Source: Caulobacteraceae bacterium
GTDB lineage: Bacteria; Pseudomonadota; Alphaproteobacteria; Caulobacterales; Caulobacteraceae
Assembly: GCA_947452665.1 (NCBI GenBank)
Contig: CANGEH010000001.1
Span: 1-32,317 of the forward strand
DNA length: 32,317 nucleotides
Direction: 5' to 3'
Part shown: positions 10,281 through 30,512 of the stretch, piece after piece
Layout: each line of letters begins with the position of its first letter
Numbering within the stretch: position 1 is the stretch's first letter
Made by a program: the position numbers and the translations under genes
The notes under the pieces: generated by a model
What the model saw: the letters and a program-made list of their open reading frames with translations, nothing else
Databases searched by the model: none
Told to the model about the DNA's origin: nothing

Positions 10281-10622
10281 GTTACCCTATTCGTCCATTG
10301 TGGATTTATAGATCTGGTTTCAACCTAAATATAGCGAATAAATCGGACCACACTCAAGTCGCATAGCGTTATGATTTTGCAACAGACATAGCGCGCCGAG
10401 GCTCATGCGCCGAGCTTCGATTTAAGAATGTTTCAGTTCGCGGCTTGAGTCCATGAAAAATTCGCATGGCCGCATAGGGGCACAATCTAGCCCCTGACCC
10501 CGAGGTTGGTCGGTCTGCTCGGCCAGAAGCCCGAGGGGCGGGAGGCGACGCTCATCGCGATTAAGCAGCCCCTTGGTGCCGAGGCCTGGCAGGGCGTCCG
10601 CTTTGGCGACACGGCGCCGGGA

Positions 10623-11414: not shown

Positions 11415-11464
11415 AGGGGCGCTCCTTAGGGATGGCGCTGGGTGTCTAAAGTCTAAAGACGTAC

Positions 11465-11487
11465 GGCGGCTGGTTTCACCAGCCGCC
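11465..11487 (-). terminator. hairpin downstream of the TonB-dependent receptor gene
   Basis: GGCGGCTGG-TTTCA-CCAGCCGCC forms a perfect 9-bp stem 58 nt after the stop. The trailing sequence on the minus strand is only moderately U-rich (GUACGUCUUUAG). Confidence 0.45.
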
Positions 11488-11544
11488 GCTTAAGTTTCAA
11501 GGCCAAGCTCAAGATTAGAAAGCCCGGACTGGGCTGTTCTTAGC

Positions 11545-14500
11545 CTAGAAGCGCTTGGTTATGTTCACAAAGCCTCGCCGACCAAAATAGTCATATTGTG
11601 AGGCCAGGACCGAGACGCCGATATTGCTGAATTGACCGAGCCCTTGGCTAACCGCGGGCGGGGCGTCGTCGAACACATTGGCTATGCCGACCAGCACGGT
11701 CCAGCTGTCCATTTTTTTACGGATTGAGAGGCTGTGATAGGCCGTGAACTCAGTATTCACCTTGTACCGGGTTAGACCAGAAGAGCTGGTATCGCCGATG
11801 TCGCCGGCCGCCGAGGCCTTGCCAATCATGTCAACACTCCAAAATCCGGTCCAATCTCCGCGATCAAACCGGGCATTAAAGGTGCTGGTCCAATCGGGAT
11901 TGCCGACATCACCATTAGAGTCGACCGAATTGTCGGCAAATAGCTCTATGGTGTCTTTTGTCTGCCAGGTGGATTGAAGATTCAGGCCAAGACTTCCGGA
12001 AAGAAAATCGCGGCTGTAATCTATCGTCAGATCAATCCCCTCATTGGTTTGCTTAGCCACATTGAGGAAGCTGTCATTCACCGTCGAAATGACATGGGTG
12101 CCGTCTTGACGCGCAAACTGAGCGCAGAGGCCGTCTGTGGGGAAGCTTTCCGAATTATAGCAGCCCGATACAATGTTTGCCGCACCCAATTGGGTGACTT
12201 CGTCGCTGACCTCAATTGAGAAATATTCCACCGCCACGCGCAGATCGGCAAACTTTGGCGACCAGATGAGGCCCAAGGTTGTTGCATCGGAGGTTTCTGC
12301 CCTCAGGACACCGGCGCCGCCGCCGGTAATGACCGTCGCACTGGCACCACTACCCGAATGGTCATCAGGAATGCCGGCTGCGGCGCAATTGTCCGCTATG
12401 CGTTGAGGCAGGTTGCCGGCGAGCAGTTCATTGCCCCAATTGATGCAAGGATCTATCGAGCGCTGCGAGGCAAAAGAGGTTTGGTCCGCCAGATAAAGCT
12501 CGAACAGGGCGGGTGCGCGGAATGATGTGCCCTTTGTGGCGCGTAGACGCACCGAAGGGATCACCTGCCAGTTCAAACCAATCTTATAGGTATTGTTTGA
12601 GCCATAACTGTCCACATCCGTATAGCGGCCCGATAGGGATAGGTCGAGCATCTGGACGGCAGGCACGTCCTTTAAGAGTGGAATTTGCAGTTCACCGAAC
12701 AGTTCCTTGGTGGTGTCCTTGCCCTTGGTAATGCCCGCGCTGGAAAGACCCCAACTGTTTCCGGCTAGGGTTACAGCGCCGGGCGTATCGTTTATTTCAT
12801 CCTTGCGAATTTGAAAGCCGAATGCGCCGCCGACGGGACCCGACGGTAGGGTGAAGACATCCCCGGTCATGGTGCCTTCAATGACAAACTGATCATAGAT
12901 GGTCTTGCCGGTTTCGCGGTCAAACAAGAAGCCGGCCTCTGCTGCGGTATACTTACCGGCAAGGAAATCAGGCGAGACCCAGGAGACATCAATACAGGGC
13001 CGTTTAGAGATTGGCGTCAAATAGCCAACGCAGGACGCCGTATCGCGTTGGATCGAGTTTTCGTTAAACAGGCCAGTTGTGCCATAGTCGCTGCGGCCAT
13101 CCGATGAATAGACAGCATCTGCTAAGATGACATCTTGGGTGTATTCGCCGTCAGAGCGGCTGAATTGGCCATAGATGTCCCAGTCCCAGCCTTTTAGGGT
13201 TTCGCCAAAATTGCCCTTCAGACCAAGGAGCGCGCGCCCATAATCGACGACCTGACTGGAGCGGTAACGGTCTGTGACCGGGGTTGGGCTAAGAATAAAG
13301 GGTCCGTTAAAACCGGCTGAGAACGGGTCGCCATAGTCATAAGTATAAAGATAGGTCCAAAATTGGCGCACATCATTGGACCGGGATTCGCGGCGATTGA
13401 GCAAGACCTCGCCATACAATTCCATGCCCTTTGACAGGTCATAGCCGCCCTGAGCATAGACGGTTGTGGTCTTGACCTCGGGGATCAAGGTTGCGTTCTG
13501 GGCCAGTGGGCTATTGGCATCGACCACGGCCTCGCCGGCGGTTCCTGTATCGCCGACCACAAAAAACCCGGTCGGCGAGACCGGATAATCGCGCCCTTGT
13601 GTGTCCGTATAACTGCCGGGAATAAAGGTCGGGATATGGGCGGCTAGACTGCCATTATAGTCGTATTGCAACTTGCCGCGGCGCGCGCGGCCCCCGAAAT
13701 CATAGAGCCAGACCTGATCATAGAGTGTGCCACGACAGGCAAATGATCCGGTCCGGGGGTCAATCAGATCGGAACGAGCGCCTGAAGCGGCGTTAAAGCG
13801 GTATTGTTCCGGGCAATTTGTATAGTCGCGGTCGCCAATTTTTTGTTCAGCCTGCTTGTAGAAATCGCCACTAATCGTGAAATAACCCTTGCTGAAGGTT
13901 TTGCCCCAAGAACCGCTGGCTCGATATTGTTCACCGCCGGATTCGAACGGGCCGGTGCCATGCACCTCGAACTCACCGCCATCGAGATTGCGCTTGGTGA
14001 TGATATTGACCACCCCAGCCACCGCGTCCGAACCATAGACCGAAGAGGCGCCATCCTTCAGGATCTCAATCCGGTCTATGGAGGTTTCGGGCAAAACATT
14101 AAGGTCAAATGCGGATACGCCGCCGCGCGTACCGGCCGGTCCGGCGCGGCGCCCGTTCAGCAAAACGAGTGTGCGGTTGGCGCCAAGGCCCCGGAGCGAA
14201 ATGGTCTGGGCGCCCGGGCCGCCATCAGTAACAAAAGCGGTTGAGATGGTCGCGTTCACCTGGGGCGAGCCGGACGCAATGGTCGAGCCTTGTAGCATCT
14301 GCGCAGTTGTGACCACGCCCTTAAGCTCAGACGTCTCAGAGCGGATCACTTGAATTGGCGTGGAACTGGTGAACTCGTTGCGCTTAATGCGCGAACCGGT
14401 GACGACCAATTCCTCTACATCATCCTGCGCTTTTGGCGCGGCTGAAGCCTCCGTTGCCGTTTGAGACCAGGCTGTACTGGGGAGGCCAAGGCCCGCTAGA

Positions 14501-14550
14501 GTAAGTCCGGCAATGAATGTAGAATTCAATAGATGATTACGAGTCAACAT
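11545..14550 (-). CDS. TonB-dependent outer-membrane receptor
   Basis: 1001 aa with a signal peptide ending STAWSQT, a TonB-box-like VEELVVTGSRI, plug motifs (IEILKDGASSVYGSDAVAGVVNIITK) and a C-terminal beta-barrel ending ...VNITKRF. GGGGGA precedes the ATG. Confidence 0.95.
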   Translation of the reverse strand: MLTRNHLLNSTFIAGLTLAGLGLPSTAWSQTATEASAAPKAQDDVEELVVTGSRIKRNEFTSSTPIQVIRSETSELKGVVTTAQMLQGSTIASGSPQVNATISTAFVTDGGPGAQTISLRGLGANRTLVLLNGRRAGPAGTRGGVSAFDLNVLPETSIDRIEILKDGASSVYGSDAVAGVVNIITKRNLDGGEFEVHGTGPFESGGEQYRASGSWGKTFSKGYFTISGDFYKQAEQKIGDRDYTNCPEQYRFNAASGARSDLIDPRTGSFACRGTLYDQVWLYDFGGRARRGKLQYDYNGSLAAHIPTFIPGSYTDTQGRDYPVSPTGFFVVGDTGTAGEAVVDANSPLAQNATLIPEVKTTTVYAQGGYDLSKGMELYGEVLLNRRESRSNDVRQFWTYLYTYDYGDPFSAGFNGPFILSPTPVTDRYRSSQVVDYGRALLGLKGNFGETLKGWDWDIYGQFSRSDGEYTQDVILADAVYSSDGRSDYGTTGLFNENSIQRDTASCVGYLTPISKRPCIDVSWVSPDFLAGKYTAAEAGFLFDRETGKTIYDQFVIEGTMTGDVFTLPSGPVGGAFGFQIRKDEINDTPGAVTLAGNSWGLSSAGITKGKDTTKELFGELQIPLLKDVPAVQMLDLSLSGRYTDVDSYGSNNTYKIGLNWQVIPSVRLRATKGTSFRAPALFELYLADQTSFASQRSIDPCINWGNELLAGNLPQRIADNCAAAGIPDDHSGSGASATVITGGGAGVLRAETSDATTLGLIWSPKFADLRVAVEYFSIEVSDEVTQLGAANIVSGCYNSESFPTDGLCAQFARQDGTHVISTVNDSFLNVAKQTNEGIDLTIDYSRDFLSGSLGLNLQSTWQTKDTIELFADNSVDSNGDVGNPDWTSTFNARFDRGDWTGFWSVDMIGKASAAGDIGDTSSSGLTRYKVNTEFTAYHSLSIRKKMDSWTVLVGIANVFDDAPPAVSQGLGQFSNIGVSVLASQYDYFGRRGFVNITKRF

Positions 14551-14681
14551 GTATTCCCCCAGTTCACAAAGATGTCTATGATCACAAAAAATGCTAAACT
14601 GTGAATTTGAAAGCGGTTAAAGACATGTGTGAGCCGCATTACTATTCTGGGTAATCGGCCGTGCCACATTTGTTGAATTTG

Positions 14682-14757
14682 TTGCAAATATGACGCAATC
14701 CCCACCCTTCTTGGCGAGGGGGATTCAATATGGTCTGAGGTTGCAAAATATGCGCAA
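14682..14757. promoter_or_regulatory. two copies of a 17-nt motif in the divergent TBDR/peptidase control region
   Basis: TTGCAAATATGACGCAA (14682-14698) and TTGCAAAATATGCGCAA (14741-14757). Each is an imperfect TTGC..GCAA palindrome, set in a 302-bp AT-rich spacer. Confidence 0.3.
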
Positions 14758-14852
14758 ATATTTAACCTTATACGTGTAATGCGCGCACTTGTTAATAATC
14801 CGCTGCACTTTTCGTTGAGGCCCAGACCATATCCGAGCATTAGGGGAAGACT

Positions 14853-16901
14853 ATGTTGCCAACAAAAACGATGCGGTTTTGCTGCTCGGTTATTGCCACA
14901 CTATGTGCCTTTGCGCCCCAGATTAGTCAGGCCGCGGATGCGACCATTCCCACCGCAATGGATTTTGCGCGCAAGCCGGCTATTTCTGAGGTCTCGATTT
15001 CTAGGGACGGCGCCCATATCGCTGCACTAACCTCTGCGGACGGGGTTAAGGCGACCGTATCGATTTGGAAAACGAGCAATCTGACGGCGGGTGGCGATCC
15101 TTTTGTAATCGCCTTGGACAAGGTTGATATTCTGGGGGTCAATTTCATCAAGAATGACCGCCTGGTGATCACGACAATCCAGCCATTTACCTATGGCGCA
15201 AGCAAGGTTCACCTGATCAAGGTCTGGATTACCGATCTTGAAGGCAAGAATTTCCGCCCCCTTTTACCTGAAGGACGTGGACGCGCCGAAACGGAGCGGT
15301 TTCAAGATGCGCTAAGTTCAGCGGGCATTATCTCGACCCTGCCCCTCGACCCACAAAACGTCTTAATGGTCGATACGCGTCTTGCCACCCGCGGTGATGT
15401 CCTAAAGGTCAATGTCTATTCCGGGGCTATCGCGCGGGTCGAGCGCGGGTCTGACCGCTTTGGCGAATTGCAGTCGGATCTAAATGGCGAGGTACGTGCC
15501 CGCCAGGAGATTGGTTTCGACAAGGGGGCGGTTTATCTTGCCCAATGGATTCGCCACCCAGACACCAAGGTCTGGGAAGAACATTTCCGCTGGTACGCAA
15601 AGGATCGCGAACCGATCTCGATTGTTGGTTTTACGCCCGATCCCAATATCATCTATATCCAGTCGACTAGGGGGCACGACAAGTCGGGGCTTTATGTTTA
15701 CGATATAAAGCAGCGGAAAACCCTTGAGCCCCTGTTTGAGCACAAGGTTTTTGATGCGCTTCGTCCGCTCTTGTCGACAGACAGGGCCGATTATGGCGAG
15801 CCGCTTGGTTTTGCCTATGCCGGGTCCGGCTTAGAAGTCTATTGGACAGACCCTCGCCTTGCAGCGGTCAATAAGGCCGTGCAGATCGCTTTGAAATCGG
15901 TTCCCACCGCCGTAAACTGGACCGATCCGGCAAGCAATGAGACTAATCGGCTGTCTATTTTTGCCGATGCGCGGGTAGACATTATCGGATGGTCTGAAGA
16001 CCGTAAGGCCCTGATTGTTGAGCGGGCAGGACCCAGTGCGCCGTCTGAATACTATTTATTCAGCAGTTCCGGAACATTGAGCTTGTTAGGGCGGGCGCGT
16101 CCCCAAATCGATCCAGCCGGCTTGGGCACAGCGCGGCTCATACAATATGCCGCCCGCGACGGTCTGATGGTGCCCGCAATCTTGACGACACCGCCTAAAT
16201 CCTTGTTTGGCGCCGGGCCCTATCCGACCCTGATCGAGCCTCATGGCGGACCCTGGGCGCGCGACTATCTCGAATGGGACCCCGCCGGTTGGGTGCAATA
16301 TTTTGCCAGCCGCGGCTATGCAGTCTTGCAGCCTCAGTTTCGGGGGTCCGAAGGCTGGGGCCAGAGGCTCTGGCGGGCAGGCGATGGCGAATGGGGCCTC
16401 AAAATGCAAGATGACAAGGATGACGGCGTAAAATGGCTTATTGATCAAAAGATCGCCGCGCCTGACCGGGTTGCCATGTTTGGCTATTCTTACGGCGGCT
16501 ATGCCGCGCTTACAGCCGCCATCCGACCAAATGGGCTCTACCAATGTGCCATCTCCGGCGCCGGGGCCGCAGACCTAGCCAAGATTAAGCAAGAGACCTA
16601 TTCAAATCGGTTCGGCCGGGAGTTTCAAAACCCAACCATTCAAGGCCTAGACCCCTTGGCTAGGGCCACAGAGGCCGCCATACCCTTATTGATCTATCAT
16701 GGCGACCGCGACACAATAGTCGATATTGGCCAGTCTCGGCGGTTTGTCGAAAAACTAAAGGCCGCCGGCAAGCCGCATCGCTATCTCGAAATCAAGGATG
16801 CCGGCCACCAGCTCATCACCATGACCCCGACCATGCTTGAGATGCAACTTGTTGAAATCGAAACCTATTTAAAAACCGATTGCGGTCCCGGCGGATTATA
16901 G
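14853..16901 (+). CDS. S9 family serine peptidase (prolyl oligopeptidase / dipeptidyl peptidase type), secreted
   Basis: 682 aa with a signal peptide ...APQISQAADA and an N-terminal propeller-like region. The C-terminal alpha/beta hydrolase domain carries GYSYGGY (Ser), GDRDTIVD (Asp) and DAGHQL (His). AGGGGAAG precedes the ATG. Confidence 0.9.
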   Translation: MLPTKTMRFCCSVIATLCAFAPQISQAADATIPTAMDFARKPAISEVSISRDGAHIAALTSADGVKATVSIWKTSNLTAGGDPFVIALDKVDILGVNFIKNDRLVITTIQPFTYGASKVHLIKVWITDLEGKNFRPLLPEGRGRAETERFQDALSSAGIISTLPLDPQNVLMVDTRLATRGDVLKVNVYSGAIARVERGSDRFGELQSDLNGEVRARQEIGFDKGAVYLAQWIRHPDTKVWEEHFRWYAKDREPISIVGFTPDPNIIYIQSTRGHDKSGLYVYDIKQRKTLEPLFEHKVFDALRPLLSTDRADYGEPLGFAYAGSGLEVYWTDPRLAAVNKAVQIALKSVPTAVNWTDPASNETNRLSIFADARVDIIGWSEDRKALIVERAGPSAPSEYYLFSSSGTLSLLGRARPQIDPAGLGTARLIQYAARDGLMVPAILTTPPKSLFGAGPYPTLIEPHGGPWARDYLEWDPAGWVQYFASRGYAVLQPQFRGSEGWGQRLWRAGDGEWGLKMQDDKDDGVKWLIDQKIAAPDRVAMFGYSYGGYAALTAAIRPNGLYQCAISGAGAADLAKIKQETYSNRFGREFQNPTIQGLDPLARATEAAIPLLIYHGDRDTIVDIGQSRRFVEKLKAAGKPHRYLEIKDAGHQLITMTPTMLEMQLVEIETYLKTDCGPGGL

Positions 16902-16915
16902 TGGGGCAGTCGCCA

Positions 16916-17509
16916 TCAGCGAGCGCTCAGTAGGGCCGTGCCGAGCGCTGCGCAATCTGATTGGTGCGCTAGAAACCAAGCCCAGGCCCATTGTCCAACA
17001 AACACCGCGCCAGACATACAAAGTCCGAAAAAGAACACCTGATAGGCCTGGCCTAGGTGCTTGTACTTTTTCACGGCCAGAACCCGGCCCAATTGGTAAA
17101 TGTCTCGGATCATGGCCCGGTTTAACCGATCCTCATCGGACAGAAGTTCGAGCATCTGGGTTTCGAACTCGCTTTCCGGCATTTGCGCAAAAGCCCCAAA
17201 AAACAGCAGATTTGGGTGGGGGTTTTTGCCTTTTGTGGTGACCGGCAACATCACCATAAGCACTAGGAAGGCGGCAATAAACACGGTCAATATGATCATG
17301 ATCAGTGCGGCCGACACCTTGCCGTCATGCACCTCTTTCAGCGCTGCGGTAAGGATGATGAAGGATGCGCCCAAGAGCACATTGGCCTTAAAATCCGCCA
17401 TGGACGACAATTGGATATGATGTTGTTGAACAACACGCAAAAACTCGACGGTTTGATTGGAGCGTACGGGATTTGTCACAGCCAGCCTATTCCCCATTGA
17501 TCGGCCCAT
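16916..17509 (-). CDS. DUF5706 / Pycsar-effector (PycTM)-family membrane protein
   Basis: HIQLSSMADFKANVLLGASFII, then NLLFFGAFAQMPESEFETQMLELLSDEDRLNRAMIRDIYQLGRVLAVKKYKHLGQAYQVFFFG. From memory, this matches the conserved core of DUF5706 proteins (..LSQMADNKANI.., NLLFFGNF..M..EY..M..D.DFL...MI.DIYFLGKVLAKKY). There are three hydrophobic helices. Confidence 0.8.
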   Translation of the reverse strand: MGRSMGNRLAVTNPVRSNQTVEFLRVVQQHHIQLSSMADFKANVLLGASFIILTAALKEVHDGKVSAALIMIILTVFIAAFLVLMVMLPVTTKGKNPHPNLLFFGAFAQMPESEFETQMLELLSDEDRLNRAMIRDIYQLGRVLAVKKYKHLGQAYQVFFFGLCMSGAVFVGQWAWAWFLAHQSDCAALGTALLSAR

Positions 17510-17909
17510 ACATCTAGCGCGCCAATACTAAGGCATATACTCGCGCCTGTGCCCATGTGAGCGATGATGCGCGTGTTACCACGGACATAATAAGCGGCCC
17601 GAAATTGGAAACAGGGTGGGCGCACCCTAGGAAAACACCAAAAACAAACCACTAAGCAATCTGCTATATACGATAATCTCGAATACGCCACTACATCAAG
17701 TATAAAAACGATTATCTAGACTATAGAGGCGCGCCTGCTCAAATAAATACATTAAGACTGTTTCGTGACGTTACCCAAAATAATTTGTGAAATTATGCCG
17801 CCGTGGGTCTGAGGGGCCGCCCTTGCGGCCCGGTTTGCTCCGACCCGGCAATAGAGGGCCTCGCCGCCCATCTTCGGGCCTATGGGCTTGTGGGTCTAGC
17901 CTAAGGATT

Positions 17910-17933
17910 GGCGGTCCCATCCGAGGGACCGCC
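17910..17933 (-). terminator. GC-rich hairpin just after the cyclase stop
   Basis: GGCGGTCCC-ATCCGA-GGGACCGCC forms a perfect 9-bp stem 17 nt after the stop codon at 17951-17953. There is no clear U-tract on the minus strand. T-richer sequence (TTGCCTGTTT) follows on the plus strand. Confidence 0.4.
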
Positions 17934-17950
17934 TTGCCTGTTTCAGATGG

Positions 17951-20017
17951 CTATTTGGTTTTGGCGACATAGACGCCGTCCCAAGTTTGGGGGGGATTGG
18001 CCTTCAGATCATTGATCCGTTCCACCATGATCTCGTAATAGGCTTTCAGGGCGCCGGCGAAAGCGGGCGCGTCTGGGTCTGCCAGCAATTGGGTTGCGGC
18101 TTCCAAGGCAAGCTCCCAGTTGCCAAGCCTGTACTGGGTGAGCAGGTTGTTGTGTCGGTCGCGCGAGGCCTCGTCGGTCTGGGCGACATGGGTATAGATT
18201 TTACACGGCTCGGACTTGCCCTTGACGGCGATGATATCGAGCTCGATCAGATTGTCCTGCAGGGTGGTGCAGGCCCTTGCCGTTTCCTCACCCATAATCA
18301 GGGTGACACCATAGCTTTTGGATTGGCCCTCAAGCCGCGAGGCGAGATTTACCGCATCGCCGAGCACCGTATAGTCAAACCTTTGATTGCTGCCCATATT
18401 GCCGACAACGCAATCGCCCGAATTAATGCCAATGCCGATATTGATCGAGGCTAGGCCCCTTGCATTCAGCGTCTCGTTCAACACCACAAGCCGTTCGGAC
18501 ATGGTAATGGCCGTTAGAACCGCTTTTTCTTCGTGATTTTCAACGTCGAGCGGGGCATTCCAAAACGCCATAATACAGTCGCCCATATATTTATCGACCG
18601 CGCCTTCCCGGGTCATGATGGTATTGGTCATTGGCGTCAGAAAGTCATTAATAAGGGCAGACAAGCCCTGAGGATCAGACTTGAACTGTTCCGAAATGGG
18701 CGTGAATCCCCGAATATCCGAGAACATAAAGGTCATGCGCCGGGTTTCACCGCCAAGCACCAGCAGGTTCGGGTTTCTTTGCAGCCTTTTGACCATCTCG
18801 GGCGCGAGATAGGTTTCGAACTGCTTTTTGATCATCTCTTTTTCGAGATATTCACTGATAAATTTCGCGGTATAGAGGTGAATATAAATCACCATTGCGG
18901 CCAAGAAATTGAACGTAATATCAACCAGCACATGATTATTCTGGAACATATAGACGGGAAGATAGGCATAGGCCGCCAATAAACCGGCAATATAAACAAT
19001 CGAGAACCTCAGCCGCGACGCTAGGATTATCAATCCAACCAGAACGATTAGGGACGCATAGTCAAAAATCGGCATCCAGTTTGGAATGGCAATGGAGTCG
19101 CCATTCATCAAGGTCTGAAGAATGTTTGCCTGAACCTCTTGGGCAAACCGTGCGCCCTGGGGGGTTGGAACGGGATTGGCTATGCCGGCGGCCGTAACGC
19201 CAAATATGACGATCTTGCCCGCTAGGTTTGGGGTCGGCGCGCCGACGTCAAATTGTTGAAACCGGTAGTTCCAATTGATGAAGATCCGCGAAAACGGGTC
19301 CGTCTTGATGGTCGGAAACTGAGGGATGCGCACGGCCTCAACGCCAGATGCGTTAATCTTGACCTGATAAGACGGGTCGCCCGCCGCAACGCGCAAAATC
19401 TCTAGCGCAAAGGCGGGATAGAATTCGCCTTTTGACATGGCCAACAGCGGCGCGCGCCGGACCACGCCATCGGGCTCTGGCAGGGTCGAGGCAATCCCAA
19501 TACCGGCCGCATTGGCCTGCAGGTCAGCCACATTATCCAGCACGCAAGCATAGCCTGGCAGGAAGAGTGATGGATCGCCGTCCCCGACCACGGCCACCCC
19601 GGTGCGTTTCAGCGCCTGATTGGACCGGCGGCACCCGCCAACAGTCTGCGACAAGACGGTTGGATAGACGGCCAAGGCCTGGGCAAGGGCGGGGTCGCCG
19701 CCGAACCGGTCAGGCTCTGGGAACATGATACTGCTCGCAACAATGCCCGCGCCGTGGTCATAATAGTCCTTAATCAGGGCGGCATAGGTGTCGCGCGAAA
19801 AAGGATATTGGCCAAATTTTTCAAGGGTTTGCTCAGAAATATTGGCAATGACGATCTCATCGGACGGCACCGGCTTGCCGATCATCAGATAGTCGTAAAA
19901 CTTCAGGCGCACAGCCTCGACCATAAACGGGTCGGCCAGCTTGACCCCGCCTAGCAGGACAAGCGTGATGATTGCCAGCCAGGGCGATAGCAGGGCTTTT
20001 TTAATCTTGGGTGACAT
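17951..20017 (-). CDS. CHASE2 sensor-domain class III adenylate/guanylate cyclase (predicted adenylate cyclase)
   Basis: 688 aa. Order: N-terminal TM, a periplasmic CHASE2-like region, a TM cluster (aa ~320-385), then the cyclase domain (MTFMFSDIRGFTPISE, VDKYMGDCIMAFWNAP, RFDYTVLGDAVNLASRLEG) and a helical C-terminal tail of about 75 aa. Confidence 0.9.
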   Translation of the reverse strand: MSPKIKKALLSPWLAIITLVLLGGVKLADPFMVEAVRLKFYDYLMIGKPVPSDEIVIANISEQTLEKFGQYPFSRDTYAALIKDYYDHGAGIVASSIMFPEPDRFGGDPALAQALAVYPTVLSQTVGGCRRSNQALKRTGVAVVGDGDPSLFLPGYACVLDNVADLQANAAGIGIASTLPEPDGVVRRAPLLAMSKGEFYPAFALEILRVAAGDPSYQVKINASGVEAVRIPQFPTIKTDPFSRIFINWNYRFQQFDVGAPTPNLAGKIVIFGVTAAGIANPVPTPQGARFAQEVQANILQTLMNGDSIAIPNWMPIFDYASLIVLVGLIILASRLRFSIVYIAGLLAAYAYLPVYMFQNNHVLVDITFNFLAAMVIYIHLYTAKFISEYLEKEMIKKQFETYLAPEMVKRLQRNPNLLVLGGETRRMTFMFSDIRGFTPISEQFKSDPQGLSALINDFLTPMTNTIMTREGAVDKYMGDCIMAFWNAPLDVENHEEKAVLTAITMSERLVVLNETLNARGLASINIGIGINSGDCVVGNMGSNQRFDYTVLGDAVNLASRLEGQSKSYGVTLIMGEETARACTTLQDNLIELDIIAVKGKSEPCKIYTHVAQTDEASRDRHNNLLTQYRLGNWELALEAATQLLADPDAPAFAGALKAYYEIMVERINDLKANPPQTWDGVYVAKTK

Positions 20018-21077
20018 TGATTACGGTTCCCCCGCCATTGACGGACACGTCTTGTGGATCGTTTTTTGTGTTGAATATGATGGTGGTCGGTTGGTTGCTT
20101 TTGAGCTTGATCGCAATCTCAGCATCCTTGGTCTGGCCAAGGCTTAGCTTCTCGCCCTCAAGGGCGACCTTCAATCCGGACGCGGCATTATCGCCAAACC
20201 GCGCACCCTCAATCTTTACACCGTCCTTGGTGTCCTTGACCTGGGTTGGGTCGGCGAGTTCGTCGGCCAAAAATTCTTCGTCGAGTGGGTTTGTATCGAG
20301 CACAACAAGATCGATGGCATTATTGTCTAGGCTGGTATTTTTCAGATAGTCCATATCAAGCGCATCGAGATCGAGAATATTGGCGCGGCTATCGGCCCCC
20401 TCTTGCTCAGTCCCGTCATCGTTTTCCGGCGGGGAAACAATCATCATATTATTGATGGCCGTTAGGTCGAGCCGCAGAATGGTTGGATCGCTGGGGGCGG
20501 TGTCTGCTGTTGATACAAATGTGGCCTGAAAGGCCTGATTAATCACGACGAAACCGGCGGCATTACTGACCGTGATCTCGCCGACCCGGCCGTCTTCTTC
20601 CGGTAAAAGCACGATGAGACTTTTGCCAAAATCGTCCACGGTCGCAGCAAAGTCTGTGCCGCGCACAGCAATGGTTGCGGTTGGCGTTCTTAGGTCAATA
20701 TTCTTCTTGTTGATCTTGCCCAGCTGCCCGGTCGCAAACCGCACTGTGCCCGAGGCAAATTGCAACTTAAACTTCGAATTGGTCGGGTTGCCGTCATAAA
20801 CAAAGCTGTCGATAACCAGTTTGGAATGCTCGGTAACCTTGACCTTGGAATTGTCGACAAAGGTTATCTCAACCCGGCCATTTCCGGTTTGGACGCGGTC
20901 AAGCGCCTCGATGGGCAACTGCACATTGCCTGGAAGCTTGGCTGTATTGCGTACGACCTCGCTAGACCCTTTAAGGTCCGTGATTTTTCCAATGCTGGAC
21001 GCATGCGCCGGGTATGCCGACAATAGGGCGACCAGGCTGACCACAGATGGCACGAGAAATTTTACTGTGGTGGCCAT
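20001..21077 (-). CDS. FecR-domain periplasmic protein with an acidic C-terminal extension
   Basis: Signal peptide ...LSAYPAHASS. The FecR-like core is GKITDLKGSSEVVR...LDRVQTGNGRVEITFVDNSKVKVTEHSKLVID...GTVRFATG...TPTATIAVRGTDFAATVD. Its 3' end overlaps the cyclase start by 17 nt. Confidence 0.85.
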   Translation of the reverse strand: MATTVKFLVPSVVSLVALLSAYPAHASSIGKITDLKGSSEVVRNTAKLPGNVQLPIEALDRVQTGNGRVEITFVDNSKVKVTEHSKLVIDSFVYDGNPTNSKFKLQFASGTVRFATGQLGKINKKNIDLRTPTATIAVRGTDFAATVDDFGKSLIVLLPEEDGRVGEITVSNAAGFVVINQAFQATFVSTADTAPSDPTILRLDLTAINNMMIVSPPENDDGTEQEGADSRANILDLDALDMDYLKNTSLDNNAIDLVVLDTNPLDEEFLADELADPTQVKDTKDGVKIEGARFGDNAASGLKVALEGEKLSLGQTKDAEIAIKLKSNQPTTIIFNTKNDPQDVSVNGGGTVINVTQD

Positions 21078-21129
21078 TTGCTGAGTTAATTATCTCGTTC
21101 TGAGTTTTCACTATAGCTATTCGATAGCG

Positions 21130-21855
21130 TCACTGCGTGATCGTAATATTATGGTCTGAGCCGGTTATATTGACATCGATCTTGTTATAAGAAGACGCGC
21201 TGGACAGGGTCTCTGTGCCCTGTTGATTAATTTCAATCACATTTCGATATGAATTGGTCATGTCTAATTTCAGATAGCGGTAATCTGAGCCTTCTTGATT
21301 GAGGCTCACCGCGTTTAAATCTCCACCAATCGATATTCTATTGGTTACATTGTTTGCATTTAATTTCGCCGTAAAGATATTGGAATCCCCATCAATCACG
21401 ATCACCTGGTCGGCATAGGTCGAGGCCGTTACCTTGCCTTGCACCATATCCACCTGATTGCTGGATCCGGCTATGGATAGGCTGAGCTCGGAATTTGAAA
21501 TTGCGCCAATCGTGCCATGATCGAGGCTGACCGTGTTATCCGCGCCAACCATGGAGACGCTATAGGCCGTAGAGTCTGCCCCGAGGGTCGATCCGGTCAG
21601 GCTATTGGTTGTGCCTTCTTGCGTGATCGACAAGACCTGATTGGAGCCCTCGGCGATGAAGTCGGTGTCCGAACTGCCGATCGCATTGGCCGTGCCGGTC
21701 TGGACGATGGTCACGGTTGAGGATGCGCCAGACTGGTCCAGATAGGTCGAATTGTCCCCAGCCTCGGCCCAGCCCGCTAGGCCAAGGGCAAGCAAAAGCG
21801 TAAGGCCCAGCCCCGCCGGATTTAGGATTGATCGGCCTTTAAACACCAATTTCAT
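21130..21855 (-). CDS. curlin-repeat secreted protein (CsgA/CsgB-like)
   Basis: Signal peptide MKLVFKGRSILNPAGLGLTLLLALGLAGWAEA, then imperfect units such as NSTYLDQSGASSTVTIVQTGTANAIG, VLSITQEGTTNSLTG, AVSLNQEGSD and VIEINQQGTETL, ending NITITQ. The ATG at 21855 is preferred. The ORF track starts at 21891. Confidence 0.75.
   Translation of the reverse strand: MKLVFKGRSILNPAGLGLTLLLALGLAGWAEAGDNSTYLDQSGASSTVTIVQTGTANAIGSSDTDFIAEGSNQVLSITQEGTTNSLTGSTLGADSTAYSVSMVGADNTVSLDHGTIGAISNSELSLSIAGSSNQVDMVQGKVTASTYADQVIVIDGDSNIFTAKLNANNVTNRISIGGDLNAVSLNQEGSDYRYLKLDMTNSYRNVIEINQQGTETLSSASSYNKIDVNITGSDHNITITQ
21133..21756 (-). repeat. degenerate curlin-type repeat region (coding)
   Basis: Recurring x-(I/L)-x-Q-x-G-x-x-N-x units, read directly from the translated ORF. 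Confidence 0.55.
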
Positions 21856-21954
21856 TCCCAAGATATGGCCAAGCGAATAGGGCCTGGCCATAACAAGATG
21901 GCCAAGGCCCCTGACGCGCGCACTAGGTTACGCGCGCCGGGGTCCGGAGGCGAT

Positions 21955-22635
21955 TTAGCAAGCGCCGCTTGTAAATGTTGAACACTGGTTGATGATGAGG
22001 GTCTGGCCGGTTCCGGACTGGGTTATGTCCAGGGTCGCGTTCGCCGAGGTTTGATCCATCGTTATGGTGTTTGAGGTGCCGCTCATATTGATGGTGTTGG
22101 TGACCCCAATTGCGTCCAGATTGCTGGTGTAGGTGTTGCTTGTCCCGGCAACGGTGATGTCCTGGATTGAGTCGGTCGCGATGGCATACTTGCCTTGAAT
22201 AATCTCTACTGTATTGAGCGTGCCCGAAACGTCCAAGGTGAGGCTTGAATCCGACACCACATAACCGCTACCAAGCGTCAGAACAATTGCGTTGTATGTA
22301 CCATATTGCGTGATGTCGGTGGTGGTGCCGTCCGCTAGGGCTATGTCAAAATTCAATGAATTGCCTGAGCCGGATTGATCAATTGTAAGGGTTTCGTCAT
22401 CACTTGATGCGACCACATCACCGTACACCAGTATAGCTGAAGCTGCACCAATCGAATTGTTATCGCCGGCCTGATTGATCGTAATCGTGCCGCCGGTACC
22501 CGACTGATCAAGATAGATCGAGTTATCCCCATAGTCGGCTGCAGCGACGACCGATATGCCAAGTCCAAAGGCCATGGTACCGGCCAAGAGGGTCTTGATC
22601 AGGAAGTGGCTGGTTTTTGTGTTCAGATTTTTCAT
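21955..22635 (-). CDS. curlin-repeat secreted protein (CsgA/CsgB-like)
   Basis: Signal peptide ...GISVVAAA. Units include NSIYLDQSGTGGTITINQAGDNNSIG, TLTIDQSGSGNSLNF (compare E. coli CsgA IDLTQRGFGNSATL), DITQYGTYNAI, ITMDQTSANATLDITQSGTGQTLIINQ. AGGGGA lies upstream of the ATG, and the start is 12 nt after the csgG stop. Confidence 0.75.
   Translation of the reverse strand: MKNLNTKTSHFLIKTLLAGTMAFGLGISVVAAADYGDNSIYLDQSGTGGTITINQAGDNNSIGAASAILVYGDVVASSDDETLTIDQSGSGNSLNFDIALADGTTTDITQYGTYNAIVLTLGSGYVVSDSSLTLDVSGTLNTVEIIQGKYAIATDSIQDITVAGTSNTYTSNLDAIGVTNTINMSGTSNTITMDQTSANATLDITQSGTGQTLIINQCSTFTSGAC
21958..22527 (-). repeat. degenerate curlin-type repeat region (coding)
   Basis: Eight to ten imperfect Q-x-G-containing units, read from the translation. 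Confidence 0.55.
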
Positions 22636-22647
22636 TACAGTTTTCCC

Positions 22648-23520
22648 CTAGTAAAGTTGAATCGGTTTGGTTGTAGATTTGGTCGATTTCTGTTTTCCGG
22701 AATTTGCAATCTGTGGCGGGGGTGTTTTAAGCACCCACAAGCCCCGCTCCGCGCCGCGCATGACGAGCTCAACAACAGCCCCCTCAATTGCGGTCTTGAC
22801 GGCACGCGTATTGGCCTCATTTTGAGACGTGCCAGCTTCTGTCTCCAGCGTCCTTGTCGCACTGTCGAAGAATTTGAACATGGTCAGGTCAGACCCGGTC
22901 GAGAGCACGGTTTTTGTGACCTGAACATTGAGGAGGACCTCGCCGGTCGCGGTCGATACGGCCCGCAATGATACGGTCACCTGATCCTTGCGATACTCGG
23001 TCGAGGCGCCGATCCCCAGATAGCGTGCGCCAGCGCCGCCGGTCGAAACATTGCTGTCATAGCCAATAATGCCGCCCTGCAAGATCAGGCCGGCAAACAG
23101 CATGGGGTCGAGTTTGTTCGACTTTTCACCATCATATTCATCGCGCGTCTGGCGAACGATTTGACGTTCCTTGGCTAGGTCGTCGATACGGTTACGTTCA
23201 ACCACGCGAAAATTGCGGCCATGCCCGGCGTTTTTCAGCGCATCGATCAAGAGGGCCGTGCCGCCCTGGGTCACTGCGTTTGAAAAGCTCGCTGCCCCGT
23301 CCCGGTCCTTGCGCTGCCCGGTAAGGTCTGGAAAGTCATAGACAGCCACAATCGGCTGGCGCTCCATTTCCGGCAGATTGACCAGACTATCGAGCACGGG
23401 TCGGTCAACCACGGGCCGGTTCTTGGCGGTTAATTCCAGGGGCGGCGGCGGCGCAGAACTGCATCCCGCCACAAGCACCAGGCCCAAAATTGCGATTAAT
23501 GTCTTGGGGCCGGACGACAT
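22648..23520 (-). CDS. csgG: curli production assembly/transport outer-membrane lipoprotein CsgG
   Basis: Lipobox LVLVAGC. IVAVYDFPDLTGQ, QGGIIGYDSNVSTGGAGARYLGIGASTEYRKDQVTVSLRAVSTATGEVL and AERGLW align closely with E. coli CsgG (VEGSIIGYESNVKSGGVGARYFGIGADTQYQLDQIAVNLRVVNVSTGEIL). The ATG at 23520 shares one base with the csgF stop (TGATG). Confidence 0.92.
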   Translation of the reverse strand: MSSGPKTLIAILGLVLVAGCSSAPPPPLELTAKNRPVVDRPVLDSLVNLPEMERQPIVAVYDFPDLTGQRKDRDGAASFSNAVTQGGTALLIDALKNAGHGRNFRVVERNRIDDLAKERQIVRQTRDEYDGEKSNKLDPMLFAGLILQGGIIGYDSNVSTGGAGARYLGIGASTEYRKDQVTVSLRAVSTATGEVLLNVQVTKTVLSTGSDLTMFKFFDSATRTLETEAGTSQNEANTRAVKTAIEGAVVELVMRGAERGLWVLKTPPPQIANSGKQKSTKSTTKPIQLY

Positions 23521-23969
23521 CAAAACTTAAACGCCGCTACGGGTATAATGATTTCGGTTAGTCCGCCGGCGCCATCATCAATCGACAGCTTAATTTGATC
23601 GATGTTTTTCTCATAAGAAATCGTATTTCCGTCTAACTCAAAGGTTCCGCTATCTGAATCGCCCGAAAACAGGTTTTCGGTTAACTGCTGAGCCAGTTGG
23701 GAATATATTCTTGACTGCAAATTTGTCGTAAATTTATTAAGTATCGAGTTTTTTTCTTCTAGCGCCTTAGCCTTGAGATCCGATTCCAGCTTTGTTTGAA
23801 TTTCTTTTTTTCTGGTCATTTGGGCCGAGTGGAGCGCTAACCAATAACCGCCAGCGCCTTCTTTGCTGAAGGACGGGCTAGCAAATCTGTGCACAATGTC
23901 CGATGCAGACGCTAGGGGGGCGTATGCAATAAAACCGGACACCAGAAAAAATTTAAATATAGATTTCAT
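23520..23969 (-). CDS. csgF: curli assembly protein CsgF
   Basis: Signal peptide [22 protein letters not shown]. The mature [24 protein letters not shown] parallels E. coli CsgF [39 protein letters not shown] and the C-terminal beta segment also align. The ORF track's start at 24008 is a TTG, so the ATG at 23969 is preferred. Confidence 0.85.
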   Translation of the reverse strand: [149 protein letters not shown]

Positions 23970-24144
23970 GATCAATCTGGTTCCAGAACCTGCATTGTTG
24001 TTAACCAAATTTCAGTATTTGAAACAAGTGTCTATTCTGGGAAAAATTTGATCTTGGGGCATTTAAGTTTAGTCGCCTGCGCCTAGCCATAAGCTTGGGC
24101 GCGCCCTGTCGGTCCCAATCTGCCAGGCTTTCAACCCTTTGGGT

Positions 24145-26652
24145 TCAAGGCGCGGGCTCAGCCTGCAGCAATCGGGCGGCAGCCTCGGCCACAGTCCGGC
24201 TCAGTATACCCGGCACTGGACCGCGATAGTTGGCCGCCGCTGCCCGCAGGGCCGCCAGCCGTTCCGGCGCTGTTATGAGACCAAGGATTTCATCTTCCCA
24301 GGCCGCCAGATCGTCTGGGTCGATCATCGGCATCAGCCCTTCGGACGCTTCGCGCAGCGCCGGGTGGGTACCGGTAACGACCGGCGTGCCACAGGCCAGG
24401 CTCTCGGCCACCGGCATGCCAAAGCCTTCCGCAAAGGAGGGGAATACAGTGAAAAGTGCCCGGCGATAGAGCAGGGCTAGGGTATCGTCCGCCACCCCCT
24501 CGAGCACAAGCAGGTGCGGTGCCAGTCGCCAGTCTCGCCGCAGCCAGATCCGCACCGGCTCCACCCCCCAGCCCCAGCGGCCGACAAACACCAGTCGCGG
24601 GAGTTCGGCCTCCGGCAGCTTGCGCCTTAGCCGGTCCCAGACCCGCAGCAGCAGCAAATGGTTCTTGCGCACCTCGATGGTGGAGCAGAACAAGATAAAG
24701 GGCCGCCCGTCCGCCAGCCCCGGGGGTAGGGCCGCATGACCACTGCCGCCGCGAAGGCTCGGCGCCAAGCCTGGATGGGCTATGCTGATATGGGCGGGAT
24801 CAACGGGATCGGCTATGCCACAAAAGTCTGTATCGGCAGCCGCCGCCCCATAGGAGGCGGCACTATGGGCCGAATTGGCCACCAGATGGTTGGCCTGGGC
24901 CAGGATGGCTAGCGCCTGGGAGACGAAGCCCTTGACCTCGCGGCCATCGGTCAGTTGCGGCACTTCCCATGCCACCATGTCATGCACGACCATAACCGCG
25001 CTACGGCCGCTCGCCCGCCACGCTTTAAAGATACTGGGCGCGGCATAGTCCCAGGGATTGGAAACTGAGACCAATACCCGTCCCTCGGGCAGGGGGGCTG
25101 CCAGCCGATGCCCTGCCGGCGGCGGGGATGAGGCCGGTCGCACCGGCAAGGCCCGGCGCCACCACCTTGCCACCCGCCAGCCCAGCGCCATGGCCTGCCA
25201 AAGCCGCCGCGGCATGGCGAAGAAGGCCAGCCCCGCTAGGCCGCGCAGGCGCAGCCGATCGGGCGCGGGAAGCCCTGGGCCTGGTGGTATGGGCAGGCTA
25301 ACCTCAAAGCGCTGGTTCACCCATTCGGTCTCGGCGCGGTCCAAGGATCGATAGCCACCGCTTGCGGGGTCATGGCGCACGAGGCCTAGGCGCAAATCGG
25401 GCCGCGCATAAAGCGCCTCGAAGACTTCCGCCTCCACCCGGCTCATTCCCATAGGGGTCTGCCAGCCATGCTCCAATGTCCGGGTCAGGTCCAGCAGGAC
25501 GCCAGGTTCGGTGGCGGGCACAGGCACGACCGCGGTTTCCCCGGCAAGCACGGTCACCAGGCGTGGCACGACCACTCCCGCGGCGAACTCGGCGCGGGCG
25601 CGGGCAAGGCCGGCCTGAGCTAGACGCGCGCAGAGGGCGTCATCGGTCGCTAGGCGATGCAGGGCGCCAGCCAGGGCTGACGCGTCGCCCTCAGGTACCA
25701 GCAGGCCGTCCTGCTCATGATTGATCAATCTTGCCGGCGCACCTGCGGCCACGGCAATCACCGGCCGGGCATGGGCCCAGGCCTCGATAATGGCGCGGCC
25801 AAAAGTTTCGGGCCCGCCCCCGCTTGTCTCCGAAGACACGACGACCCCGCGGCAGGCCTCCAGGTCCGGCCCTGGGTCGGGCACATAAGGCTCCAGCCTA
25901 AACAGGCCTTGTAAATCGGCCGCCGAAACCTGTTGTTCCAGCGCCGCATAGAGCGCCGCATCGGCCCTATAGCCGATGGAGCGAATTTGCACGGGCGTTC
26001 CGGCAGCGCGCAATATCGCCGCCGCACGGATCAGTGCGGCATGACCCTTCCAGCCATTGACGGTGGCCAGATGCAGCAATGGCCCCGCTATTGGCGGCAG
26101 GCTAGCGTCCTGTGTCGGCAGTTCCACCATGTCGGGCACGACCAAGGCGCGCAGTGGGCCGCGTGGGGCGATGAAGGGCTCTAGATAGTCTGGGCGGTCT
26201 AGAACCACCTGGTGCGGAACTAAAATCGTGGCGCCGACCAGGGGCTGCAACACCTGGCCAAGGTCCGACCAGAGAAAATCGCGCACATAGACAAAGCTGC
26301 GCGCACCCAGACCAGGCAACCAACGCGTCGCGGCCGCGAGGATGCGGGCCGAGCCATGGGTATTGGCCAGCACGACTGCCGGGCGCAGGCGCAGATAAAG
26401 CGCGATGAAACGCTGCACTGCCCGGTCGAAATCTGCATCATCTGCGCTGGCAACCGCGGTGATATGCAGGTTTGGCCGGGCAAGTTGGTGCAAGGCCTGC
26501 AGATGCAGCGGGCTCTCGGCAATCACCGCGGCCCGCTGGCCCGGCGGCAGATGGCGCAGTATGATCTCCAGACTGCGTTCGGCCCCGCCATAGCCGGGAC
26601 TGACAGAAACCACCAATAGCGGGCCGGCGGGCATGCCCGCGTTCTGGTTCAT
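24145..26652 (-). CDS. tandem glycosyltransferase (two GT4/GT-B type domains)
   Basis: N-terminal half: LLVVSVSPGYGGAERS...SSETSGGGPETFGRAIIEAWAHARPVIA. C-terminal half: ILFCSTIEVRKNHLLL...FTVFPSFAEGFGMPVAESLACGTPVV (E-x7-E region). The ATG at 26652 is 8 nt after the upstream stop. Alternative starts are at 26685 (ATG) and 26691 (TTG). Confidence 0.8.
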   Translation of the reverse strand: MNQNAGMPAGPLLVVSVSPGYGGAERSLEIILRHLPPGQRAAVIAESPLHLQALHQLARPNLHITAVASADDADFDRAVQRFIALYLRLRPAVVLANTHGSARILAAATRWLPGLGARSFVYVRDFLWSDLGQVLQPLVGATILVPHQVVLDRPDYLEPFIAPRGPLRALVVPDMVELPTQDASLPPIAGPLLHLATVNGWKGHAALIRAAAILRAAGTPVQIRSIGYRADAALYAALEQQVSAADLQGLFRLEPYVPDPGPDLEACRGVVVSSETSGGGPETFGRAIIEAWAHARPVIAVAAGAPARLINHEQDGLLVPEGDASALAGALHRLATDDALCARLAQAGLARARAEFAAGVVVPRLVTVLAGETAVVPVPATEPGVLLDLTRTLEHGWQTPMGMSRVEAEVFEALYARPDLRLGLVRHDPASGGYRSLDRAETEWVNQRFEVSLPIPPGPGLPAPDRLRLRGLAGLAFFAMPRRLWQAMALGWRVARWWRRALPVRPASSPPPAGHRLAAPLPEGRVLVSVSNPWDYAAPSIFKAWRASGRSAVMVVHDMVAWEVPQLTDGREVKGFVSQALAILAQANHLVANSAHSAASYGAAAADTDFCGIADPVDPAHISIAHPGLAPSLRGGSGHAALPPGLADGRPFILFCSTIEVRKNHLLLLRVWDRLRRKLPEAELPRLVFVGRWGWGVEPVRIWLRRDWRLAPHLLVLEGVADDTLALLYRRALFTVFPSFAEGFGMPVAESLACGTPVVTGTHPALREASEGLMPMIDPDDLAAWEDEILGLITAPERLAALRAAAANYRGPVPGILSRTVAEAAARLLQAEPAP

Positions 26653-26659
26653 GGCCTGA

Positions 26660-30229: not shown

Positions 30230-30512
30230 CAATAGGGGGTCCCAAGCGATTGCGGCCCAGCCTGCCTAAGCCCGGGCCCTAAGAAGCTTTGGCGCACGCT
30301 TAAGAATAGTTCAAGCAACAGGTCGGACGGCAGTGAGTAAATTTGGTGCAAGGCGCTAAACCACAAAGAAACAATTTTGTCCCTCTAGCTTATTCCACGA
30401 AACGGCTCAACCCGATGCAAGTCTGCGACGGCGCTCGCAGGCCTGGCGGCGGATCGCGTTTAAACTGAACTCGCTATAAGCGCGTATCGAGAACCGATGA
30501 CGGGATACCCGC

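Follow-up and report, generated by a model that had tools for sequence, protein, structure and literature searches.

A PycTM-family gene downstream of a CHASE2 adenylate cyclase in a Caulobacteraceae bacterium: probably two independent units brought together by rearrangement

We analyzed a stretch of 32,317 nucleotides (nt) from a Caulobacteraceae bacterium (GenBank assembly GCA_947452665.1, contig CANGEH010000001.1, positions 1 to 32,317, forward strand; hereafter the window), in which a gene for a small membrane protein of the Pycsar-effector family (PycTM) lies downstream of a gene for a class III nucleotide cyclase with a CHASE2 sensor. A preliminary description, made from the sequence alone, had read this arrangement either as chance adjacency of two widespread families or as a receptor-gated relative of the Pycsar antiphage systems. 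Our data support chance adjacency, with the refinement that the pair is inherited within one narrow clade and was not found elsewhere among the loci sampled. The list of open reading frames (ORFs) agrees with the preliminary description on the coordinates of both genes and on their order, cyclase then effector-like gene, on the same strand. The cyclase gene is the last of a six-gene cassette; the features of the locus, with lengths in base pairs (bp) or amino acids (aa), are as follows.

14853..16901, plus strand: S9 prolyl-oligopeptidase-family gene, 682 aa (Pfam Peptidase_S9, 4.7e-33), convergent on the PycTM-like gene
16916..17509, minus strand: PycTM-like gene, 197 aa (ORF list and Pfam PF18967, the PycTM / DUF5706 or pJV1-SpdB3 three-transmembrane (3TM) family)
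17510..17950, minus strand: intergenic spacer, 441 bp, made up of a GC-rich segment (17796..17950) and an AT-rich segment (17510..17795)
17697..17794, minus strand: AT-rich block with conserved ends, a candidate operator/promoter element
17910-17918 / 17925-17933, minus strand: perfect G+C-rich hairpin (9-bp stem, 6-nt loop), 18 nt past the cyclase stop
17951..20017, minus strand: CHASE2-sensor class III adenylate cyclase, 688 aa (Pfam and PDB relatives), final gene of the cassette
20001..21077, minus strand: FecR-domain protein, 358 aa (Pfam FecR, 6.6e-12)
21130..21891, minus strand: curlin-like secreted protein, 253 aa (no Pfam match; paralogue of the 226-aa protein)
21955..22635, minus strand: curlin-repeat-like secreted protein, 226 aa (Pfam Curlin_rpt)
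22648..23523, minus strand: CsgG, outer-membrane pore component of curli (type VIII) secretion (Pfam, 5.5e-52)
23520..24008, minus strand: CsgF, outer-membrane pore component of curli (type VIII) secretion (Pfam, 5.9e-18), start of the cassette

The 197-aa protein is a member of PF18967, scoring well above the curated threshold (E 8.8e-25; 87.6 bits versus a cutoff of 27.2; profile positions 8-107 of 107), and it is matched by PADLOC PycTM models (9.6e-18, 5e-10 and 1.6e-08), which bears out its earlier assignment to the Pycsar-effector family. Its AlphaFold2 model is all-helical (predicted local distance difference test score 83), with helices at 15-61, 67-87, 106-124 and 126-196 and no beta-rich nucleotide-binding domain. 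Reading the sequence by eye places hydrophobic stretches at ~42-58, 66-89 and 155-180, while a strict hydropathy cut-off flags only 60-94; the predicted structure fits a small all-helical membrane protein with three transmembrane (TM) helices. A Foldseek search of the PDB with this model yielded no match with E under 0.6, the matches being merely generic helical bundles and BAR domains, an outcome that is structurally neutral on nucleotide binding. The N-terminal motif EFLRVVQQHHIQLSSMADFKAN is nearly invariant among PycTM relatives only 36-50% identical overall, and this near-invariance speaks for purifying selection on the stand-alone protein.

The two ends of the gene are less uniform. In the protein collection the gene is called as a shorter product (P0002), 161 aa long with M37 as its first residue. 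At the C terminus the tail exceeds that of every homologue in length, its last ~20 codons being lineage-specific, and homology to the two most similar genes (on contigs L001 and L104, described below) stops at 16976, 60 nt before the stop codon. The stop codons of the PycTM-like and S9 peptidase genes are 14 nt apart (16902..16915), as previously reported; the same description saw no terminator there, but a weak terminator-like hairpin lies on the minus strand at 16892..16875, where it falls within the peptidase gene's 3' end and just past the PycTM-like stop.

The cyclase is a membrane receptor with an extracytoplasmic sensor, as had been proposed. Pfam identifies CHASE2 (7e-38) and Guanylate_cyc (1.3e-19) domains, and hydropathy places a hydrophobic segment at ~5-33 and a hydrophobic block at ~313-382 on either side of CHASE2; we read this block as three TM helices and the sensor as extracytoplasmic. 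The best solved relatives of the catalytic domain are CyaB of Pseudomonas aeruginosa (3r5g, 1.3e-32) and CyaC of Spirulina (1wc0/1wc1), and a bacteriophytochrome-cyclase fusion (6fht) is also among the closest. The motifs DKYMGD and DYTVLGDAVNLASRLE align with their equivalents in 3r5g and 1wc1, and the alignment yields metal-binding D434 and D480, substrate-binding K476 and T550, and transition-state N557/R561. A Lys + Thr pair is the signature of class IIIb adenylate cyclases. The K476/T550 pair and the nearest solved relatives support an adenylate-cyclase (ATP) type of specificity, in line with the purine type suggested earlier. The protein has every hallmark of a class III adenylate cyclase with a CHASE2 sensor, namely the sensor domain between TM helices and the catalytic residues. 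PADLOC PycC models also match it (9e-29), solely across the shared class III catalytic domain.

Full-length homologues of the cyclase number in the thousands at ~55-60% identity in the protein collection. By architecture the protein is like CyaD1 and CyaD2 of Sinorhizobium meliloti, alphaproteobacterial CHASE2 adenylate cyclases with an N-terminal TM helix, a periplasmic CHASE2 domain, TM helices and a class III cyclase domain; their output, however, is the Crp-like regulator Clr and not a membrane effector. Among the window and two related loci (L103 and L004), the cyclase gene is mostly 88-96% identical at the nucleotide level and 71-78% identical over its last ~400 nt (17951..18360), which suggests that the tail after the catalytic domain either evolves much faster or was exchanged.

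The cyclase gene closes a minus-strand cassette running from 24008 to 17951 in the order CsgF, CsgG, curlin-like, curlin-like, FecR, CHASE2 cyclase, the collinear order found in a type VIII secretion system (T8SS; curli)-FecR-adenylate cyclase cassette. The two curlin-like proteins are paralogues (36% identity, E 6e-28), and the end of the FecR gene and the start of the cyclase gene share 17 nt, an overlap suggestive of translational coupling. The same cassette occurs at L004 (4128..10066), L093-L097, L101 and L102. L004, from a Caulobacteraceae metagenome-assembled genome (MAG), holds the closest relative of the cyclase (93% aa identity) and is 87% identical at the nucleotide level over 17952..23906, the full stretch between CsgF and the cyclase stop. 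The match breaks off precisely at that stop codon; a TetR-family gene lies downstream there, and no PF18967 gene was found within 8 kb of the L004 cyclase.

Cyclases at 56-59% identity sit on T4-like freshwater contigs of 76-352 kb. These contigs are phage genomes, as their genes for a T4-type DNA polymerase, PhoH, an exonuclease and an endolysin and their long same-strand runs of small genes show. They share the CsgF-CsgG-curlin-like-FecR-cyclase order with the window, in some cases with one extra gene between FecR and the cyclase, and the cultured phages HTVC008M and Melnitz hold the same cassette with a cyclase 36-41% identical to that of the window. FecR stands immediately before the cyclase in the bacterial relatives L004 and L005 and in two of the three freshwater phage contig sets; another gene intervenes in the third set and in HTVC008M and Melnitz. 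The genes that follow the cyclase on the phage contigs are unrelated ORFs of 165-187 aa that do not belong to PF18967, and none of the seven phage loci has a PF18967 gene beside the cassette. Because the same gene order is kept in the phage contigs, HTVC008M and Melnitz, the functional unit that contains the cyclase is the cassette.

A pelagiphage cassette that includes FecR and the adenylate cyclase has already been described, with the statement that FecR and the cyclase are not found within bacterial T8SS operons (PMC9599517); earlier papers discuss the curli genes only (PMC7029224, PMC9004378). The window copy shares the pelagiphage order of CsgF, CsgG, curlin-like, FecR and cyclase genes but lies on a bacterial chromosome, with glycosyltransferase, TonB-receptor and peptidase genes on its flanks. 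It further differs in that both curlin-like genes stand before FecR and in that no histidine kinase gene is seen directly upstream in the window. The G+C content of the cassette is 52.7%, compared with 66% on its right side (24009..30300), 60% in the first 10 kb of the window and 41-43% in the phage contigs. These features, together with the 56-59% identity of its cyclase to those of the freshwater phage contigs, point to an exchange of the whole module between bacterium and phage. The flanks at 24145..30232 and 7363..10280 carry glycosyltransferase and methyltransferase genes (GT1, GT2, RMNT_CmcI-type), a content that looks typical of a surface-polysaccharide region. Such regions often vary between strains.

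We examined the neighborhoods of cyclase relatives at 79 loci, drawn from a scan of one genome per species, using a profile built from the PycTM alignment. No PF18967 match was found within 8 kb of the cyclase at any of the 79 loci, even at E <= 10, while the same profile recovered Bacteroidota HD-PycTM proteins at 1e-25 to 1e-31 as a positive control. Among 73 first downstream neighbors, the recurrent Pfam families are OEP (11), cNMP_binding (11), TPR and trypsin/PDZ; among 68 upstream neighbors, HlyD, ABC transporters and cNMP_binding recur, and five carry FecR.

Two further patterns appear in this set. The wider set of cyclases adjoins type I secretion genes (HlyD, ABC transporter, OEP). 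Distant CHASE2 cyclases (33-35% identity) have an ORF of ~145 aa 2-133 nt downstream, at L007, L011, L012, L015, L017-L019, L021, L029, L036 and L071, mostly in MAGs and single-amplified genomes of uncultured alphaproteobacteria and 'Rickettsiales'. These ORFs are probably the 11 cNMP_binding downstream neighbors, a tally that is not split by locus. The arrangement looks like a conserved pairing of a cyclase with a receptor for cyclic nucleotide monophosphates (cNMPs), of a different kind from the pair in the window.

We also examined where PycTM relatives sit. We found 42 homologues, all of ~140-200 aa and with PF18967 as their only domain; the two with a named source come from a Caulobacteraceae MAG and from Thermaurantiacus, and a scan of metagenome contigs with the PycTM alignment returned five loci only, mostly short. 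The contexts are listed here with the aa identity of each relative to the window's protein.

P0003, 87% (L001): between HicAB / a small lipoprotein-like gene and a Stealth-family gene
P0019, 69%: follows a 1341-aa peptidase-like gene and precedes a PIN/antitoxin pair
P0006, 67% (L002, L003): MarC - PycTM - DUF1674 - (TetR) - RsmB - PurH
P0026, 66%: the P0006-type context (MarC-PycTM-DUF1674-RsmB-PurH) without the TetR gene
P0011, 64% (L092): acyl-CoA dehydrogenase and APH genes
Metagenome contig, 62% (L083): DNA-alkylation-repair gene and S15 peptidase gene
P0040, 50% (L088, L089): between an acyl-carrier-protein gene and an epimerase gene
P0042, 39% (L090, L091), Planctomycetota: DUF3604 gene and an unknown gene
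IMG/VR contigs, 30% (L098, L099): solute-binding protein and phosphoribosyltransferase genes
IMG/VR contig, 29% (L100): unknown gene and lipase gene

No cyclase adjoins the PycTM relative in any of these 10 other contexts, as judged by phmmer with the window's cyclase domain, a search that detected a divergent 402-aa cyclase as a positive control. The sole cyclase near any such gene is a GAF-PAS class III cyclase 5 kb from P0019 on the opposite strand. One context, MarC-PycTM-DUF1674-RsmB-PurH, recurs in two relatives. L001, which has the most similar PycTM protein, shares with the window only the gene region 16976..17534. We considered a conserved PycTM-peptidase pair, convergent in both the window and L083, and rejected it: the peptidases are unrelated (S9 versus S15/PepX, BLASTP E 0.03).

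PF18967 is broader than Pycsar. On the Fulvitalea axinellae plasmid pFA2 (L105, 4326..7016), the gene for a 406-aa HD + PF18967 fusion is separated by 262 nt from the downstream gene of a 402-aa class III cyclase-domain protein, and Chondrinema (L106) has a similar 387-aa PF18967 protein with no cyclase nearby and no HD match. The Fulvitalea arrangement is a possible non-Pycsar link of the PF18967 family to nucleotide signaling.

The pair itself recurs in one other population. The 2138-bp contig L104 carries the last 188 cyclase codons (80% aa identity to the window), a 660-bp spacer and then PycTM (86% aa identity), and L103, which overlaps L104 at 99.9% identity, holds a full cyclase 91% identical in aa to that of the window. 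The outer flanks differ: L104 2023..2138, directly after its PycTM gene, matches window 10242..10357, and compared with L104 (1732..2138) the window has ~6.6 kb extra (10358..16975) encoding a 263-aa ORF, a 1001-aa TonB-dependent receptor and the S9 peptidase. Since homology ends at 16976, the window-specific C-terminal tail of the PycTM-like protein and the 14-nt stop-to-stop gap are products of this junction. The cyclase genes of the window, L103/L104 and L004 are about equidistant (87-89% nucleotide identity), and the pair is present in two of these three lineages, L004 being the exception; L001 has its PycTM gene elsewhere. Judged from these alignments, the pair is synteny by descent in a rearrangement-prone region and not a recurrent association, and its recurrence in L103/L104 agrees with the expectation under shared descent.

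The junction is not an assembly chimera, because two independent metagenomes match it exactly: in two lake metagenomes from different studies, an 8163-bp contig covers 14500..18392 with zero differences, a span reaching from the peptidase across the PycTM-like gene and the spacer into the 3' end of the cyclase. In a third lake metagenome (run X5), a contig agrees with the window on the right side of 17738 and runs on leftwards into unrelated AT-rich sequence; this break inside the spacer probably marks a variant junction in a co-occurring strain. Related sequence was found in one lake metatranscriptome run only (X24), as three short contigs at 93-97% identity for which DNA carry-over is possible. 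They match 17155..17405 in the PycTM-like gene, 16748..16902 at the end of the S9 peptidase gene and 21987..22137 in a curlin-like gene, and close relatives of these genes may be expressed in situ. None of the three contigs contains spacer or cyclase sequence, which is too thin a sample for a call on co-transcription.

The spacer between the two genes is bipartite, with 67% G+C in the 150 nt adjoining the cyclase and 44% in the other 291 nt. It had been described as a 441-bp AT-rich structured spacer; the length and the hairpins stand, and the whole spacer folds better than shuffled sequences (z = -2.5; 0 of 100 shuffles as good), but it is not uniformly AT-rich. The GC-rich part contains the hairpin at 17910..17933 and a second G+C-rich stem. 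We regard this hairpin, which is absent from L104 and L004, as a candidate terminator or 3'-end stabilizer without a U-run; lacking a T-run, it was not flagged by a terminator scan. An Rfam scan of the whole window at gathering thresholds gave no match, so the spacer is no known riboswitch or small RNA. A consensus scan of the spacer found no sigma-70-like promoter, the consensus being uninformative for the host organism.

Comparison with L104 identifies the conserved parts of the spacer. Short-word blastn, used because a global MAFFT alignment misplaced the shared blocks, finds only three common stretches, AATTTCRCAAATTATT, TTTTTATACTTG and 23 nt at the PycTM ORF start; only ~130 nt are matchable between the 441-bp and 660-bp spacers; the window's G+C-rich hairpin segment is not in the L104 spacer. 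Both ends of the AT-rich block are kept in L103/L104: AATTTCACAAATTATT (17779..17794), which contains the inverted repeat AATTT-CAC-AAATT, and TTTTTATACTTG (17697..17708), with ~85 nt between the two motifs in both genomes. These motifs may be a regulator binding site or a promoter element. Synteny with L004 stops at 17952 and synteny with L001 at 17534. We interpret the spacer as the likely end of the cyclase operon together with the likely promoter region of the PycTM-like gene. Two other candidates were rejected: the GC-rich hairpin segment is not a repetitive extragenic palindrome (REP) or miniature inverted-repeat transposable element (MITE), having no other copy in the window or in any relative's locus retrieved, and there is no small conserved spacer ORF common to the window and L104.

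Set against Pycsar, the locus has two points of likeness: its effector-like gene is a bona fide member of the PF18967/PycTM family, and this gene lies downstream of a class III-fold nucleotide cyclase on the same strand. Pycsar cyclases are stand-alone or AGS-C-fused cytosolic enzymes producing cyclic CMP or cyclic UMP, whereas the window cyclase, which has the K476/T550 pair, is a membrane receptor of 688 aa with a CHASE2 sensor. Pycsar genes form a two-gene unit that co-occurs across genomes; here the genes are 441 bp apart and paired only in the window and L103/L104, one narrow clade, and the cyclase belongs to another conserved cassette. A consistent defense-island context is not seen here either.

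A 2026 preprint describes Pucsar, in which cyclic GMP (cGMP)-producing cyclases lie beside CNBD-TIR or pJV1-SpdB3-family 3TM effectors; it sets rapidly evolving "immunity" cyclase clades apart from physiological cyclases and places Pucsar cyclases as a sister branch of the mainly stand-alone Pycsar-1 cyclases (10.64898/2026.08.12.744502, bioRxiv). Since Pucsar exists, the logic of a purine cNMP acting on a 3TM effector exists. The window would resemble Pucsar-TM in combining a purine cyclic mononucleotide with a 3TM protein of the pJV1-SpdB3 family. Pucsar cyclases, however, make cGMP, and the sensor-linked window cyclase has ATP-type residues, with a Lys/Thr pair and no guanine-type pocket, the architectures being compared by description. 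In addition, the cytosolic region of EcPucTM is described as carrying a beta-sheet appendage, in contrast to the all-helical model of the window protein.

Taking these data together, we consider it likely that the window holds two independent units that became adjacent by a lineage-specific rearrangement. The first would be the cassette of csgF, csgG, two curlin-like genes, fecR and the CHASE2 adenylate cyclase (24008 to 17951). From its domains and gene order, synthesis of cyclic AMP (cAMP) tied to curli-type secretion is most likely under the control of the CHASE2 sensor and a periplasmic FecR-like partner. The second would be a stand-alone PF18967 gene, from an alphaproteobacterial clade without a dedicated cyclase whose members usually sit among unrelated housekeeping or variable genes. 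The cyclase transcript may end at the GC-rich hairpins, and the AT-rich half of the spacer most likely provides the PycTM-like gene with a promoter of its own. In one freshwater Caulobacteraceae-like lineage, rearrangement within a variable region would have placed the two side by side, and the arrangement would since have been passed on. It is most likely no mark of a cyclase-effector signaling pair, and a new defense system is most likely not present. The receptor-gated reading is unsupported because the cyclase has other well-conserved partners, FecR and the curli/T8SS genes, and none of the 79 cyclase loci, seven phage loci or 10 PycTM contexts pairs both genes. The samples drawn show no association between DUF5706 genes and CHASE2 cyclases, the outcome that the preliminary description had itself named as speaking against that reading.

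Several points weigh against two independent units. PF18967 domains are tied to class III cyclases in Pycsar and Pucsar systems, an HD-PycTM fusion adjoins a cyclase on one Bacteroidota plasmid, and a nucleotide-gated role for the family in general is plausible. The cyclase/PycTM pair recurs in a second population (L103/L104), its adjacency having outlasted 11-19% nucleotide divergence though both flanks were rearranged. The cyclase operon may read through into the PycTM-like gene, and our context samples comprise tens of loci, short of a genome-wide enrichment test. One rival reading is a lineage-specific module in which the 3TM protein was recruited as the output of the CHASE2 cyclase, with an envelope signal raising cAMP and cAMP acting on a gated oligomeric membrane protein, a receptor-gated analogue of Pycsar/Pucsar-TM. 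Strand and order are those of cyclase-then-effector systems, the pair is kept in two populations at 81-89% nucleotide identity despite changed outer flanks, systems that join a purine cyclase to a 3TM effector are known (Pucsar, with cGMP; 10.64898/2026.08.12.744502), and Fulvitalea pFA2 offers an HD-PycTM gene next to a cyclase. Yet in the loci sampled there is no co-occurrence beyond the clade in either direction, the close relatives L004 and L001 each have one of the two genes with no copy of the other close by, and the spacer, at 441-660 bp, is mostly unconserved. The cyclase is embedded in another conserved cassette and, as a CHASE2 receptor with K476/T550, is unlike the stand-alone immunity-clade cyclases as described; the model of the 197-aa protein shows no recognizable cyclic-nucleotide-binding domain. 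We judge such a module to be quite unlikely. That a phage-type curli/FecR/CHASE2 cassette captured a 3TM PycTM-family protein in the freshwater Caulobacteraceae-like lineage, and gates it by the cassette's own cAMP, strikes us as very unlikely; if it were true, a membrane effector would be opened or assembled in response to a signal at the envelope or surface, in a receptor-gated, purine-based cousin of Pycsar/Pucsar.

The remaining alternatives treat the adjacency as incidental. It is unlikely, in our view, that the stand-alone 3TM clade is a cNMP-responsive membrane protein working in trans with any active class III cyclase of the cell, in which case the two window proteins might still communicate: the family does provide effectors of cNMP-based systems, the near-invariant motif EFLRVVQQHHIQLSSMADFKAN in the N-terminal cytoplasmic helix suggests a conserved interaction surface, and a relative's mRNA may occur in the lake metatranscriptome, but ligand binding by this clade is putative, and no conserved linkage to a cyclase or cNMP-binding gene appears in the 10 contexts. 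The family is also named for SpdB3 of the Streptomyces plasmid pJV1. SpdB3 is a plasmid-spread protein, and PF18967 membership would then not imply cNMP gating. We give hardly any credence to a decayed defense system, in which the 3TM gene would be a surviving Pycsar/Pucsar effector whose dedicated cyclase was lost and the CHASE2 cyclase merely the next gene. The region is rearrangement-prone, and some close relatives do lie beside toxin-antitoxin genes (HicAB at L001; PIN/PSK_trans_fac and a TIR_2 protein near P0019), but members throughout the clade, down to 30% identity, are as a rule stand-alone genes, the spacer ORFs contain no cyclase fragment, and the recurrent housekeeping context of two relatives and the strong sequence conservation are unlike a decaying remnant.

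For the PF18967 family, these findings mean that "Pycsar effector" annotations include a sizeable stand-alone alphaproteobacterial clade without a cyclase partner. A PycTM label beside any class III cyclase is insufficient for a defense-system call, and PADLOC PycC models also match ordinary class III cyclase domains. Were the receptor-gated reading true, it would extend cyclase-plus-membrane-effector immunity to gating by extracytoplasmic receptors. The more noteworthy by-product, of modest interest, is that a bacterial chromosome has a cassette that had been described as peculiar to pelagiphages, which bears on the origin of this phage module.

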